DNA of 63,489 nucleotides, counting the filler, from Neolecta irregularis DAH-3 (taxonomy: Eukaryota), in the NCBI GenBank assembly GCA_001929475.1. It is 10 parts of 10 records of this genome, joined end to end, with 100 filler letters (N's around TTAATTAATTAA, not from the genome) between each part and the next. Parts side by side here need not be neighbours in the genome. Positions count along the whole stretch, not along the records: positions 30,638 to 34,490 come from LXFE01000794.1; 9 more parts are not named here. The stretch is one strand, 5' to 3'. Shown one piece after another: positions 9,406-60,493 of the stretch; the stretch's first letter is position 1; each line of letters starts with the position of its first letter. The notes under the pieces were generated by a model, which was not told the origin of the DNA, did not search any database, and saw only the letters and a list, made by a program, of their open reading frames with translations. The position numbers were made by a program, and so were the translations under genes.

Positions 9406-9505
9406 NNNNNNNNNNNNNNNNNNNNNNNNNNNNNNNNNNNNNNNNNNNNTTAATTAATTAANNNNNNNNNNNNNNNNNNNNNNNNNNNNNNNNNNNNNNN
9501 NNNNN
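9406..9505. other. Artificial contig linker N44-TTAATTAATTAA-N44 (also 18454-18553, 30538-30637, 34491-34590, 37242-37341, 39956-40055, 42960-43059, 44210-44309, 60107-60206)
   Basis: Identical 100-bp structure occurs nine times; TTAATTAATTAA is a standard six-frame stop spacer; genes are truncated at several of these points. Confidence 0.97.
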
Positions 9506-18453: not shown

Positions 18454-18699
18454 NNNNNNNNNNNNNNNNNNNNNNNNNNNNNNNNNNNNNNNNNNNNTTA
18501 ATTAATTAANNNNNNNNNNNNNNNNNNNNNNNNNNNNNNNNNNNNNNNNNNNNCCCCCTTCTTTGGAATCTACTCTATATACAATAGAACATCTTAATAA
18601 TAGACAAGATAATTCAGTTCAACTGATCCGTGTATTTCACAAAAACTAGTATCGGTGAATTCTACTACCGGCATTCCTCTCCGTCACTCTTTCCGTCCC

Positions 18700-30537: not shown

Positions 30538-30914
30538 NNNNNNNNNNNNNNNNNNNNNNNNNNNNNNNNNNNNNNNNNNNNTTAATTAATTAANNNNNNN
30601 NNNNNNNNNNNNNNNNNNNNNNNNNNNNNNNNNNNNNGAAGAAAGAGAAAGGAAAAATCGCACCCCTCCCGATAAGTTCATCTTTATTTTGTAAATTTCC
30701 TTTCAACTTTCTAATCGTTTGGAAAATATAAAACTGGTATCTTGCCGAAAACTCCCTGTTACGCCCACAACGCGCATTCGATCGACATCATTTGCAGTCA
30801 ACCCAAACTTTGCATCAAGTAGTAAGCAACCCAAAGCCAAAAGTCATCTGGCATATTCACCTTGGGAAAGCCATCAGTGTCATCATACCAACTTCTGCTC
30901 ACAAAAAAGTGTTA

Positions 30915-33015
30915 TCAACCCTTTTTACACACATATCCGAAATACTCAAACGTCCCCATCCCCCCTCCGAGCTTGTGCACTTGACATGTCCATTCAACAC
31001 GTTCCAAATACCGAAGCCGAAAGTGTGGTTGCGCATAGGTAATATATATGAACACCCCATTGACCTTTAATCCCCGCATCACCCCATCAATTTCTTTTCT
31101 GCAATTTTCAGTCACATATTCAGGAGGATCCCAAACAGAACCAGTATATGATATCATCGCATCAAGACATCCCTAAACCCATCAGCTCCAAAGCGTAGCG
31201 CCAAAAAAACCTTGTCGATAATAACATCAAATTCCCCAGAATATCTCAATTCCCGGGCATCCGCCACCTTTTAATATTAACTCCAAATAAATATAAGAAA
31301 CTACCGTCCATTCCATTGGTTTGTTTTTGTATCTTTGAATCATTTCAGAAATAAGGGTATTTGAAAAATCCACATTCACGATATTTTGAAATCCATCATC
31401 GTATAAATTACCAGAAAGTTCTGAATTTCCACATCCCAATTGCAAAATTCGTGAATTTTTAGTGAGAAAGGGTATGATGAAATCTTTTATTTGATCGTAT
31501 TTCAAAAACCAGTCGAACGGTATTGAATCGGGTTTGTATTTGGTATTCCAGTATTCGGAGGTTTGTAATTGTTCGATAGGGGGTGTGATGTTGTCTTGTT
31601 TTGCGGGAATATGGAAATTTTGACTAGGTGACGATGTTTCTAAATTTCGACATATTGTTTCCGAATTTCGAGCTGACGTCGTTTCAAAATCTTGGGATGA
31701 TGGCGTTTCTGAATCCTCGCCTTCTTTTTGATATCCTCTTCGAGGACCTTTTCCTGCCGTCACAGGAATCTCTCTCTCGTACCTCCTATTAAATGATGCA
31801 GCCAACGTCTCAAAGCATCCATTTGTAATGCTCTCTCTGATATCATTGAAAAATTTCGACAATACTTTCAAATTATGGCTTTTCGGTCAATGTAAATTTA
31901 ATATAAGGGTACATTTGCAGTAACGTCCACCCAAACATTTCTTTTGCATAAAGTAGATGGCGAATATAACATCGTTGGAATTTGCTGCAAGTATAGCATG
32001 AACACGACGAATTAATTGGCCGTGTGTCGAATTCCTGACTGGTATCCCACATATCTTGACTAAGAGGAAGGACGGTACAATTCTCATCTAGTAAATCAAA
32101 GGTCAAAGCGACTCCCGCATCAGTCGCCGCAAGAACAAAATCTGCGGTGAAAACATCAACGCCTTGAGCTACTAAACTTAAAATTTCGTGTGGATTTTTG
32201 GACCAAGGAATTAGGAATTGTGGTTTGAGTCTCGTCGATTCGGATAGCCACTGTAAATCTCCACCTTCAAATATCGCCATTCCTGAGAAATTTTCCTCAA
32301 AAGACGCGAGAAAAGCAGAATATTTTTGACAAGAGATATCAGGAAGATTTGGCGGAAATACAGCTAGAATCGGAATATTAATCTTTTTGTTAGGAAGTAG
32401 CATGTATTAGATATACATTTGCATCGGCAAGTTTCTGTATCCACAATTCCGATCTCAACAAGACGTTATTGACTCGGTTGCCTCCAGGGTTTTTTTGTGG
32501 AATATCCGCGAGCGCAACAACTAGATCGGGCTTCAGTTGAACAGCCGCATCAATGTAATCGCTCAATGATAATTTTCGTACCCCCTCGGACGTAGTTACA
32601 CCAATAAAGTGATTCGTGTTTGTGGGTGTCGGTATTGGTTTAGATCTCCTCGGGCCCAAAAGTACTACTTTATCATCCTGCAAAGCGACAAAATCACGCA
32701 GCGGTCGTTGAAAACATGGCGGCTTCTGGGGAAATCGCTCAATACTGAGAAATCAGCCTGCTCGTTTCTAAAAAAACCATACAAATCTTCAAGTCCATAA
32801 TAAATCGCAGAAACGTTGGTATGTTTTTGGAGGATATCAGGCGTGATGTGAGGAATAGCGCCGCGGGAGGAAGAAGGAATAAACGTAGGTGTCTTTATTA
32901 TTGTTTTCTCTCTCATAAAATGCAACTGACCGGTTCGACATCTAGACAAAGAACCCGGTTTCAAAATTTCAAACGGTAAAAGTTTGTCCATATGATCGTG
33001 TAATTTTCTATCCAT
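30915..33015 (-). CDS. Apparent fusion gene: queuine tRNA-ribosyltransferase accessory subunit (QTRT2/Qtr2) + EEF1AKMT4-like class I SAM methyltransferase
   Basis: TGT-family part: TPTFIPSSSRGAIPHITPD, PHEILSLVAQGVDVF, CSCYTC, YIRHLL.AKEM..WTLLQIHN..FFNDIRESI. It continues without a stop within ORF 31227..31871 into YWNTKY..FDW..ILQLGCGNSELS..VDFS, then FDVIIDKGCLDA..WDP..ITYAQPHFR. Confidence 0.82.
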
Positions 33016-33135
33016 TACAATTTGCGCGGGACATGAAACAGAGTCGATGTGTAGTGTAAAATGTCTAAAATGTCTCGACAAAAGATTTTCAGGGAAATCT
33101 TTTTAAAGCTAATTCTATTTGTACACGTATCATGT

Positions 33136-33780
33136 TTATTCGTAAATCCATTTGGATTGAGAAATGGCATAAGAAGAAACTTCTTCCTCCTTGAACCAGA
33201 GCGCAATTTCCTTCTTTGCATTTTCAACACTGTCGCTTCCATGGCAGACATTTCGACCGACTAGAAGGTGAGATAATATAATCACAAAACAATATACCAT
33301 CAATGGCATAATCACCGCGGATGGTTCCTGGTGCAGAATCGAGAGGGTTAGTGGAACCCAAAAGTTCTAATTGTCAGTTTAGGAATTGTTTTTTTTCAGG
33401 TATACTTCGTCCAGTCTCGACAGCTTTCAAACCTTCCCAGACCATTGCGACGACAGGGCCAGAAAGCATGTCTAGAAATTAGTTGTTCGTGTGCGAGAGA
33501 ATCTGACATTGAATCAAGCTGGAGTTCAGTTTTGTAAAGACCAGAGGAATACCCATTGAAAAACGACTTGGTCGAAAGATCAGCGTCTAGTTATTCAGAA
33601 AACTTCGCGGGACAACCATGTACAGTGCTTTTGCAAAAGGTCCTTGGAAGGAGTAATCATTTTGAGAGCAACCAATTTATACCCTCGTTTCTCAAATCGG
33701 CCAATGATTTCGCCTACGAGACATCGTTGGACGCCGTCTGGTTTAACGGCGATAAAAGTTCGTTCGGTATTTGCAGACAT
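33136..33780 (-). CDS. NDK1: Nucleoside diphosphate kinase, 6 exons incl. an 11-nt microexon
   Basis: [57 protein letters not shown]. Confidence 0.97.
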
Positions 33781-33896
33781 GGTAAAATTGGAAGATGGAC
33801 AACAGAAAAAATGGTGGTCAAGTAAAACAGGTTATGATGCAAACTTCGTTCAATCAATCCCATCAATCTGGTACTCTAACGAGTAGCCTAACCACC

Positions 33897-34490
33897 ATGA
33901 ATTCGCCAAAATCCTCAAAAGACCCGTCTCGTTCTCCGGTTGCAATGCCAGGAAGGCTGAATCGTCTTTCGCTGGTCGATAAACTCGAATCGCATCCCAT
34001 TCAACGAATCACAACTGCGAGAACGACTAAACGAATGTCGCTAAACCTGGGAATACCAATTGCTCCTTCTCCTACAGTCGCATCGAAGCAATCGCCTCGA
34101 CTATTGCGCAGCCAGTCCGATGCAAACTCGCCAAATATTCTGGAAATGATTGCATACGAGGAAAGGTATTCGACATACACAAAGCATTCCTCTCATACAC
34201 CAGACGCGTCGGTGAACTAAAGGAAGAGCTGGCTCGTGCAGAATTAGATCTCGAAAACCTGAAGCAAAAATGGCAAGCTACTGCCCATGGCCTTGTAGAT
34301 CCCATGGATCTTGCTATGTCGAACCGTGAAGAACCCGTTTTTGAAACGGGCAAGCGTCTTGTCAAGGAAGGCGTTCACATCTTTTCGCAGGTATTGAATG
34401 TCATGCTGGATGAGCTTCGAATACCTGCAAGTGAAGAATTCACAACACCACCCCGAGATACTCTTCAAAAAATAAAATCACACACTGAAA
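33897..34490 (+). CDS. Tda11/DUF4048-like coiled-coil protein, 5' part (truncated by linker)
   Basis: KRMSLNLGI and spliced LEMIAYEERRVGELKEELARAELDLENLKQKW resemble the conserved coiled coil of this fungal family. Confidence 0.55.
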
Positions 34491-34590
34491 NNNNNNNNNN
34501 NNNNNNNNNNNNNNNNNNNNNNNNNNNNNNNNNNTTAATTAATTAANNNNNNNNNNNNNNNNNNNNNNNNNNNNNNNNNNNNNNNNNNNN

Positions 34591-36905: not shown

Positions 36906-37341
36906 CAATCTCTCTGGGATTAGTGTAGGTATATTTCTTCAGTCTGGGTTGGAAACACGCAAGGCAGTTGTGTCGTGATTGCTCGCGAGTCCGTATTTCT
37001 TGTGTTTTGGTGTTGCGCTTGAGTGGGGGTTATAGTTGAACGATCGCAAAAGGGGGCTCAGGAAGCACATTTGTTTTGTAATTGGTTTCATAAAATGAAT
37101 ATCTATTCTTTAACTTGTATCTTGATCTAGATGGATGTTTGTCTATCGTGTTACTATCGCTGTCACGTTCTTGGAATCAGGTTCACGTTACTATATCACG
37201 TTACTTTACAAAAATATTCTCAAACTATTATCGAATGTTCANNNNNNNNNNNNNNNNNNNNNNNNNNNNNNNNNNNNNNNNNNNNTTAATTAATTAANNN
37301 NNNNNNNNNNNNNNNNNNNNNNNNNNNNNNNNNNNNNNNNN

Positions 37342-39955: not shown

Positions 39956-40055
39956 NNNNNNNNNNNNNNNNNNNNNNNNNNNNNNNNNNNNNNNNNNNNT
40001 TAATTAATTAANNNNNNNNNNNNNNNNNNNNNNNNNNNNNNNNNNNNNNNNNNNN

Positions 40056-42959: not shown

Positions 42960-43322
42960 NNNNNNNNNNNNNNNNNNNNNNNNNNNNNNNNNNNNNNNNN
43001 NNNTTAATTAATTAANNNNNNNNNNNNNNNNNNNNNNNNNNNNNNNNNNNNNNNNNNNNTTATTTTCCTATACGATACAAAGGTCCCCTTTTTACCAGAC
43101 TCATTGGTTATTAAAAAGATCTTACACTGAAATCCGAGAGGCTAAACTAAGAACCCCAGCTCTCGGAAACTTGATTTTCAGTTCTCAGAGCGATTTGTCG
43201 CAAGCCTTGATATCGACCAATCGTTTCATTCGAGATCGCTAGAACAAGACTCGCCTTTCTCTCAATTTCATTACAACTCCTAATTGTTGCAATATTTCCA
43301 GAGAGCCTTCAGCAGCGTAACG

Positions 43323-44209: not shown

Positions 44210-44656
44210 NNNNNNNNNNNNNNNNNNNNNNNNNNNNNNNNNNNNNNNNNNNNTTAATTAATTAANNNNNNNNNNNNNNNNNNNNNNNNNNNNNNNNNNN
44301 NNNNNNNNNTCACATTTAGCTGTTTATTTAAAATATTAAATAATGTACAAGGTAGAAGCTTTAGTGAGCGAGAAAATAAATCAACACATATCTAGGCGAT
44401 ATCCAAGCCAAAACGTTGCCATAGTTGGACAAATCTTTTCATTTGCGGTTTCCACTCGGTGAGAAATTTCCCTCCAATTTGTTCTGATACACCAGTAAAA
44501 TTCCGAGTTTTATAACCTCACCACCGCCAGCAGTTGGCCACCTGTAAAACAGAATATGAGCCACGGGAAAGGTGTAATCATCATCATCCACCCTTTCACA
44601 TTTGAATGAAACATTTCTTTCGGCTTCTACACCGAGTAACTGTATTGATGAGGGAC

Positions 44657-59995: not shown

Positions 59996-60493
59996 ATTAA
60001 GTCCTTGGTCCACTTGCAATACTGGCAACACCCCCATCCGGTCATTGGTGGCTTGTGGTCTTTGGCAATGTTACTCGTCTCCCGACATCAGCGCATCGGA
60101 CCAGGGNNNNNNNNNNNNNNNNNNNNNNNNNNNNNNNNNNNNNNNNNNNNTTAATTAATTAANNNNNNNNNNNNNNNNNNNNNNNNNNNNNNNNNNNNNN
60201 NNNNNNCCCTACCCGCCACTTTGAGGATGTCCTTCGTTCGTTTGCCGGTGGCGGTGGTTAGTGGCTGTGGGGGTTCCGGGAATCCCCAGTGTCGGAACCT
60301 GGGGGGTGTCGGTTCGTACGCCGCCGAGCTTATTGGCAAGACTGTCCTGCTTATATATAGAATGGCAATATGTATCATATAGAATGCAATAGATATCTAC
60401 TATAGAATGCCACGGATAAACAAGAAGAGGTAGAAACGACTATCGGACAAAAATGGAAGAAAATGAAAATAAATTATGTATTCCGGGGAGCAA

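Follow-up and report, generated by a model that had tools for sequence, protein, structure and literature searches.

In a 63,489-nucleotide window of DNA from Neolecta irregularis DAH-3 (GenBank assembly GCA_001929475.1), a gene on the minus strand (33015-30915) joins accessory subunit 2 of queuine tRNA-ribosyltransferase (QTRT2) in frame to a complete methyltransferase of the EEF1AKMT4 family. In the assembled DNA the fusion is real; a single protein is its most likely product, and we regard it as a probably genuine, lineage-specific feature of N. irregularis. Both families are known, and what is new is the architecture; if made as one chain, the product would be the first case in which a subunit for tRNA modification and a methyltransferase of an elongation factor are covalently joined. 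QTRT2 is the non-catalytic partner of queuine tRNA-ribosyltransferase QTRT1. Eukaryotic TGT is a QTRT1-QTRT2 heterodimer (PMC13326639).

A continuous reading frame across two domains

The gene lies on a contig of 3,853 bp (positions 30638-34490 of the window; GC 0.41) and was resolved into six exons separated by five GT..AG introns (38, 34, 34, 37 and 38 nucleotides), giving a 1,920-nucleotide coding sequence and a product of 639 amino acids that starts at ATG 33015 and contains one stop codon only, at its end (TGA, 30917-30915; Table 1). The product comprises a full QTRT2-type TGT domain, a tail of 57 residues and a complete EEF1AKMT4-type methyltransferase. It is identical, from residue 182 of the latter onwards, to a deposited NCBI protein of 817 amino acids (P0001), which has 99% identity to the junction exon and is named Queuine tRNA-ribosyltransferase-like protein [Neolecta irregularis DAH-3]. 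The introns of the fused gene are unusually short and uniform, and those of the upstream gene for nucleoside diphosphate kinase (NDK) look similar by eye, one of them having a GTCAGA donor.

The original prediction, made from the sequence alone, had held that QTRT2 runs into a complete methyltransferase with no stop codon between them, and this was borne out both by the single 639-residue splice model and by a stop-to-stop open reading frame (ORF) of 219 amino acids (31227..31886, minus strand), which is unbroken and reads HNLKVLSKFFNDIRESI...GKGPRRGYQ...EYWNTKY...FDW...LGCGNS. Over the 73 codons from REIPVT to EYW, this frame contained no stops, compared with 2, 2, 6, 2 and 3 in the other five. 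A frame open by chance at the junction is unlikely (roughly 5-9%, multiplied by 1/3 for the match in phase, by our own arithmetic from the stop counts of the other five frames). It was also correctly predicted that no methionine separates the end of QTRT2 from methyltransferase motif I: in P0001 numbering, residue 514, which still belongs to QTRT2, is followed by no further Met until residue 701, past motif I at 669. No tandem repeat was found at the junction by Tandem Repeats Finder (minimum score 30), and a division of the tail into four degenerate (D/N)xET repeat units, seen by eye, was dropped because the program returned nothing at that score. A search of the 3,853-bp contig against Rfam gave 0 matches at gathering thresholds.

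The predicted identities of both domains agreed with the profile searches and with sequence matches in the PDB. In Pfam, the QTRT2 half matched TGT (PF01702) with 148.7 bits (cut-off 26.3) over profile positions 3-356 of 357, corresponding to P0001 residues 204-556. When exon 3 was compared with the PDB, the best four of 48 matches were accessory subunit 2 chains (7nq4_B, 9hn7_B, 7b2i_A and 6fv5_A), and the closest named relatives of this half are called QTRT accessory subunit 2 in UniRef. Twelve fungal QTRT2 orthologues were aligned (from Morchella, Alyxoria, Amylocarpus, Cladophialophora, Dactylellina and others), and CSCYTC ... LLQIHN of Neolecta fell in the same columns; we take the CxCxxC ... 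H residues of the QTRT2 half to be its zinc site. Stand-alone fungal QTRT2 proteins (Morchella, Amylocarpus and Cladophialophora; 461-476 amino acids) are 39-42% identical to the Neolecta protein over the whole TGT domain and have in common with it the CxCxxC...HN zinc region, the G.GPR.RGYQ motif and an acidic variable tail. Whereas these proteins have a tail of about 50-60 residues and then stop, the reading frame in Neolecta is stop-free there and continues into the methyltransferase.

The same polypeptide matched Methyltransf_31, Methyltransf_25 and Methyltransf_11 with 35.2, 29.9 and 26.6 bits, respectively, each over its Pfam cut-off. The sole sequence match of the junction exon in the PDB was 2PXX (E 8.8e-15; residues 7-95 of 2PXX matched), which has been identified as eEF1A-KMT4 (PMC5737405). 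The relatives carry the source-given name EEF1A lysine methyltransferase 4, and long proteins of the METTL13 type scored lower in a word-based search. The domain may be an orthologue of KMT4 and not of KMT2/METTL10, METTL12 or METTL13-N. With 14 stand-alone relatives it shares 42.6% identity on average, inside the range of 38.1-46.8% that these relatives show themselves, and its terminal branch (1.0; median 0.66) was not marked as a long one. Stand-alone fungal relatives of 200-224 amino acids (Lipomyces, Tuber, Phaffia and others) are 44-50% identical to it, and they, human 2PXX and Neolecta have in common the EYW..Y..FDW extension, LGCGNS, the Post I Asp, Post II DKG.LD and QPHF. Unlike the stand-alone EEF1AKMT4 proteins, the Neolecta domain is without a start codon of its own and is placed at the C-terminus of QTRT2.

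A ten-sequence alignment has 25 invariant columns, among them those of GCGNS, of the Asp in Post I and of QP, and by construction Neolecta keeps every one. Invariant residues include Y631, W632 and W645 of the N-terminal extension, G670-S674 (GCGNS) and D692 (the Post I Asp, in NVDFS), and H782 and F783 of QPHF match nearly invariant columns. In the human enzyme, the substrate tunnel is lined by the N-terminal extension that precedes motif I, and D88 is the acidic residue of Post I (PMC5737405). The Post II motif of the family is [D/E]-K-G-T-x-D, and mutation of its charged residues in the human protein (E129, K130, D134) abolished activity, while T132A, or a Leu mutation, in the same motif just lowered it (PMC5737405). 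Neolecta has D-K-G-C-L-D, with Cys in place of the consensus Thr. Its methyltransferase thus possesses all essential positions, with Cys replacing Thr in Post II, and by homology to the human enzyme its substrate would be Lys36 of eEF1A, which it would trimethylate. As the domain is well kept, it must presumably be translated, and as no ATG occurs before residue 701, translation would have to come from upstream.

The junction stretch and the occurrence of the architecture

A linker of about 58 residues had been predicted at 31554-31727. Its extent held (57 residues, 31727-31557), but not its status as a new spacer: judged by alignment, the stretch begins by continuing the fungal QTRT2 C-terminal motif into the variable tail, and its last ~10 residues are the usual lead of the methyltransferase. 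The 12 fungal QTRT2 orthologues align with Neolecta through YE.E.P...G.GPR.RGYQ.KS.G and then pass into a poorly conserved acidic tail. A pattern search of 214 fetched proteins recovered G.GPR.RGY[QH] in 48 QTRT2-type proteins besides P0001, and the tail that follows it was 19-139 residues long (median 56, by our count), one outlier beyond this range having a 255-residue tail that carries a phosducin domain. At the other end, stand-alone methyltransferase relatives beginning with Met (n = 41) have 7-64 residues (median 14) ahead of xYW, and IEQLQTSEYW of Neolecta aligns with NQLQTVEYW of a Lipomyces protein. Leads of this variable length, together with longer fusions, suggest that N-terminal additions are tolerated in the EEF1AKMT4 family. 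Since the 57 residues are filled by two coding ends, they leave no room for a 3' untranslated region, a promoter or a 5' untranslated region. The C-terminal extension of fungal QTRT2 (motif plus an acidic tail of ~56 residues) is itself a feature for which we met no description in the literature; solved animal QTRT2 chains in the PDB are just 415-423 amino acids long, with the zinc region at about 340-376.

Codon usage was scored for the 46 codons assigned to neither end (31727-31590). The log-odds was 0.108 per codon in frame and -0.074 and -0.303 in the other two frames; the reference, made up of 110 coding windows taken from 17 other long ORFs of the 63,489-nucleotide stretch, had a mean of 0.108 +/- 0.078, and the 120-nucleotide spacer between the NDK gene and QTRT2 scored -0.369, -0.021 and -0.169. 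The tail has the codon usage of in-frame coding sequence, a result of modest support, given the small size of the test and the unequal GC of the contigs used for training.

A combination of TGT and methyltransferase was found in P0001 alone, both among the best phmmer matches and among the fetched proteins. A phmmer search of P0001 against 1.84 billion cluster-representative proteins produced 13,867 matches at E <= 0.001 (177 at E <= 1e-30), and among the best 150 of these both domains were spanned by P0001 only. In Pfam, none of the ten longest other matches held TGT and a methyltransferase together (one was FLILHELTA plus TGT, one TGT plus phosducin, three had two methyltransferase-type matches and the rest had TGT only). 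When the three domain segments were compared by local phmmer with the 214 fetched proteins, 119 matched QTRT2 only, 88 the methyltransferase only and 3 NDK only; P0001 was alone in matching more than one segment, and three fragments of 61 residues matched nothing. A word-based search of proteins of 385-2,000 amino acids gave 12 matches out of 527 candidates, 11 of which cover the methyltransferase part only, and among shorter proteins there were 40 matches out of 98 candidates. The best of the shorter relatives was just 45% identical, so the collections searched hold no second Neolecta sequence. Scanning metagenomes with the junction exon yielded 82 pattern matches, from which two loci (L001 and L002) were confirmed, both distant methyltransferase relatives (31% identity by tblastn). 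No QTRT2 match was present anywhere on these two loci, and as neither is a Neolecta relative they are uninformative on conservation of the fusion.

No account of a QTRT2-methyltransferase architecture was found in the literature searched. The impression that it is undescribed stood in that it was found nowhere else searched, and fell short in that the record is already public as an automatic gene model. Some long QTRT2 database entries carry unrelated domains, namely P0058 (FLILHELTA, N-terminal) and P0071 (phosducin, C-terminal), which may either have arisen by the merging of gene models or be lineage-specific fusions in their turn. The L001 metagenome contig (7,583 bases, 21.7% GC) encodes an EEF1AKMT4-like methyltransferase.

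Origin of the fusion and competing explanations

In the explanation that we favour, QTRT2 and the methyltransferase would once have been tandem genes of a genome that is very compact, and the stop codon of the first, the ATG of the second and the DNA between them would have been lost. A full-length fungal QTRT2, including its own disordered C-terminal tail, would in this way have been joined directly to a complete seven-beta-strand lysine methyltransferase of the EEF1AKMT4 family, the join falling about where the methyltransferase start codon would be. The product would be one bifunctional protein of 639 amino acids (expected mass about 72 kDa), in which the TGT-like half pairs with QTRT1, inserting queuine at G34 of tRNA Asn/Asp/His/Tyr, and the C-terminal half, tethered by QTRT2's own flexible tail, would by homology methylate eEF1A at Lys36. 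The analysis establishes the continuity of the ORF, the identities of the domains, their intact motifs and the uniqueness of the architecture; transcription and translation as one unit, the activity of both halves and any functional coupling between them are what we infer.

Several observations weigh against this explanation. The fusion was read from the genome sequence alone, and in a single Neolecta genome; the assembly, made from fruiting bodies collected in the field, is fragmented, and the contig that bears the gene measures 3.85 kb; two GT..AG intervals, 31782-31748 (35 nucleotides) and 31677-31640 (38 nucleotides), would each give a QTRT2-only product if spliced; and with spacers as short as 120 nucleotides here, an internal transcript start may be possible on length grounds. 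In addition, the sole annotation that shows the fusion also holds a demonstrably false merger with NDK. P0001 starts with NDK profile positions 1-78 only, followed by out-of-frame sequence that matches nothing, and it misses the frame that encodes the genuine C-terminus of NDK (profile 108-135 of 135), a frame closed by the gene's own stop (33138-33136), 120 nucleotides before the QTRT2 ATG at 33015. The deposited model wrongly merges the upstream NDK gene with QTRT2, and the annotation is therefore no support for the fusion. The junction between QTRT2 and the methyltransferase differs from the NDK merger, as no stop or start is present there to be missed.

The locus could instead yield mainly separate products, with splicing of a cryptic intron or internal polyadenylation giving a QTRT2-only protein, and with a methyltransferase that is rare, coming from a minor unspliced form, or that uses a non-AUG start on an internal transcript; we consider this unlikely. 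Among 66 GT..AG intervals of 28-120 nucleotides surveyed in the junction exon, two were of intron-like size. The interval 31782-31748 (GTACGA...GAAAAG, with TGAC 12 nucleotides before the acceptor) is similar to the real introns in its length and its ends and would bring a QTRT2 stop 21 codons on, but its removal deletes YEREIPVTAGK and shifts the frame out of the conserved GPRRGYQ; since a conserved QTRT2 motif is lost, such splicing cannot be constitutive. The interval 31677-31640 (GTCAGC...TTTAG) would stop QTRT2 after 4 codons, but is by eye without a YTRAY-like branch site. Splicing of either could occur as a minor isoform. That promoters can be very short here, the spacer before QTRT2 being just 120 nucleotides, and that the S. 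pombe Aco2 fusion also yields a truncated mRNA (bioRxiv 10.1101/2019.12.16.879015) speak for separate products. Against them, neither cryptic interval supplies a methyltransferase ATG, the sole ATG in the tail (31653) belongs to another frame, in which a stop follows after 9 codons, and starts at Met701 or Met710 would give an inactive enzyme, without the N-terminal extension that lines the substrate tunnel in the human protein (PMC5737405). Two other routes to a separate product were tried and rejected: a methyltransferase start at ATG 31653, as no downstream GT..AG interval brings this ATG into the methyltransferase frame, and an ORF from ATG 31846 which, with the 31782-31748 splice, reaches the methyltransferase frame, but is contrived and leaves QTRT2 without its conserved motif.

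The Neolecta assembly, made from field-collected fruiting bodies, comprises 14.5 Mb; its coverage is 199-fold and its N50 is 16 kb (PMC5309816). Short contigs (here 3,853 bp), this N50 and the field material leave some scope for an artefact of assembly or base calling, either through the joining of neighbouring or unrelated genes or through a miscalled stop and start, which we nevertheless hold to be very unlikely. It would need at least a lost stop, a lost ATG, a kept phase and an open, coding-like spacer, all at 199-fold coverage (PMC5309816), and at this coverage two or more base errors in 200 nucleotides are unlikely. A chimeric join would have to coincide precisely with the point at which one protein naturally ends and the other naturally starts, and the junction is free of tandem repeats. 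It is more improbable still that the methyltransferase is a dead relic, superfluous since it lost its start codon and with its frame open by chance or through recent origin, and that the protein works as QTRT2 with a passenger domain. The replacement of Thr by Cys in Post II would fit a relic, as Thr-to-Ala lowered the activity of the human enzyme; the charged Post II residues, which are essential in that enzyme, are nevertheless present (PMC5737405). All three methyltransferase exons are open, both of their introns keep GT..AG ends and phase, the invariant columns are kept with H782 and F783 matching, and the divergence is ordinary, all of which argues against a relic. RNA was sequenced for the Neolecta genome project (PMC5309816), and RNA-seq data of N. 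irregularis exist as GSE300630 (75-bp pairs; PMC13263728, which also names a JGI assembly, N. irregularis DAH-1 v1.0).

Features of the fused gene and its surroundings are collected in Table 1. The window consists of separate contigs (GC 0.41-0.57) joined by N44-TTAATTAATTAA-N44 spacers, and features that cross the spacers are consequently artefacts of concatenation. On the contig of the fused gene, a partial ORF on the plus strand (34031-34489) is truncated where the contig ends; its sequence looks like a coiled coil and has a weak, sub-threshold match to Bap31_Bap29_C (17.4 bits, cut-off 30).

Table 1. Positions of the fused gene, its exons and motifs, the neighbouring NDK gene and the spacers, in window coordinates
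Feature	Position	Strand	Basis
Exon 1, QTRT2 N-terminus (ATG 33015-33013)	32783..33015	-	Splice model; TGT profile 3-45
Exon 2, QTRT2 TGT domain	32417..32744	-	Splice model
Exon 3, QTRT2 TGT domain with CxCxxC part of zinc site	31913..32382	-	TGT 68.6 bits; PDB matches
Exon 4 (junction exon), last QTRT2 helices, QTRT2 tail, methyltransferase N-terminal extension, motifs I and Post I; stop-free	31305..31878	-	
Exon 5, methyltransferase, ends in IIDK of Post II motif	31211..31267	-	Splice model
Exon 6, C-terminal half of methyltransferase with GCLDA...QPHFR..., ending at TGA 30917-30915	30915..31172	-	
Introns (34-38 nucleotides each)	32745-32782, 32383-32416, 31879-31912, 31268-31304, 31173-31210	-	
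GKGPRRGYQ, fungal QTRT2 C-terminal motif G.GPR.RGY[QH]	31728..31754	-	Alignment and pattern search
Acidic, Ser/Thr-rich stretch of 57 residues, GYQ to EYW; no in-frame ATG or stop	31557..31727	-	
Methyltransferase motif I, LGCGNS	31422..31439	-	Alignment
Separate NDK gene, own stop 33138-33136, not part of fusion	33136..33780	-	Pfam, frame analysis
Spacers	9406-9505, 18454-18553, 30538-30637, 34491-34590, 37242-37341, 39956-40055, 42960-43059, 44210-44309, 60107-60206		

A possible link to eEF1A methylation and comparison with known fusions

Read as a Rosetta stone, the fusion would signal a functional link between queuine insertion and methylation of eEF1A at Lys36, a reading that we find quite unlikely. 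EEF1AKMT4-type enzymes may then tune eEF1A for the delivery of the four queuosine tRNAs, and tethering in Neolecta may have eEF1A methylated where these tRNAs are made. In human HAP-1 cells with EEF1AKMT4 knocked out, the clearest changes in A-site occupancy were those at codons for Asn (AAC/AAT) and His (CAC/CAT), with a lesser change at Asp and Tyr codons, along with Ala, Val, Pro, Leu and Trp (PMC5737405). Transfer RNAs with Q34 read exactly the NAC/U codon families of Asn, Asp, His and Tyr (PMC13326639). No paper connecting queuosine with EEF1AKMT4/eEF1A-KMT4 was found in the literature searched, and how eEF1A-KMT4 acts to modulate eEF1A is, according to a review, a question in need of further study (PMC10238732); together, the fusion and the codon effects of the knockout offer a concrete hypothesis for this action. 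Fusions of neighbouring genes in compact genomes can be accidental, and if the present one is just a by-product of genome compaction it would be a minor curiosity, yet one that calls for caution over merged gene models in this assembly.

Joining of the EEF1AKMT4 family to an unrelated neighbouring gene is also seen in the human EEF1AKMT4-ECE2 read-through, and EEF1AKMT4 was first annotated as part of ECE2 owing to overlapping sequences (PMC10238732). In the human case, the methyltransferase is N-terminal and occurs in addition as a protein by itself, for which it has a start and a stop, whereas in Neolecta it is C-terminal and has no separate ORF. METTL13, another eEF1A-modifying protein, likewise has a KMT4-like domain fused to a second domain (PMC10238732), but its partner is a spermidine-synthase-like methyltransferase domain, and the fusion is ancient, widespread and unrelated to tRNA modification. 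Within the Taphrinomycotina, a gene fusion is likewise represented by S. pombe Aco2, which combines aconitase with a mitochondrial ribosomal protein; it differs from the Neolecta gene in its partners and in having documented transcripts, including a truncated one produced by internal polyadenylation (bioRxiv 10.1101/2019.12.16.879015).

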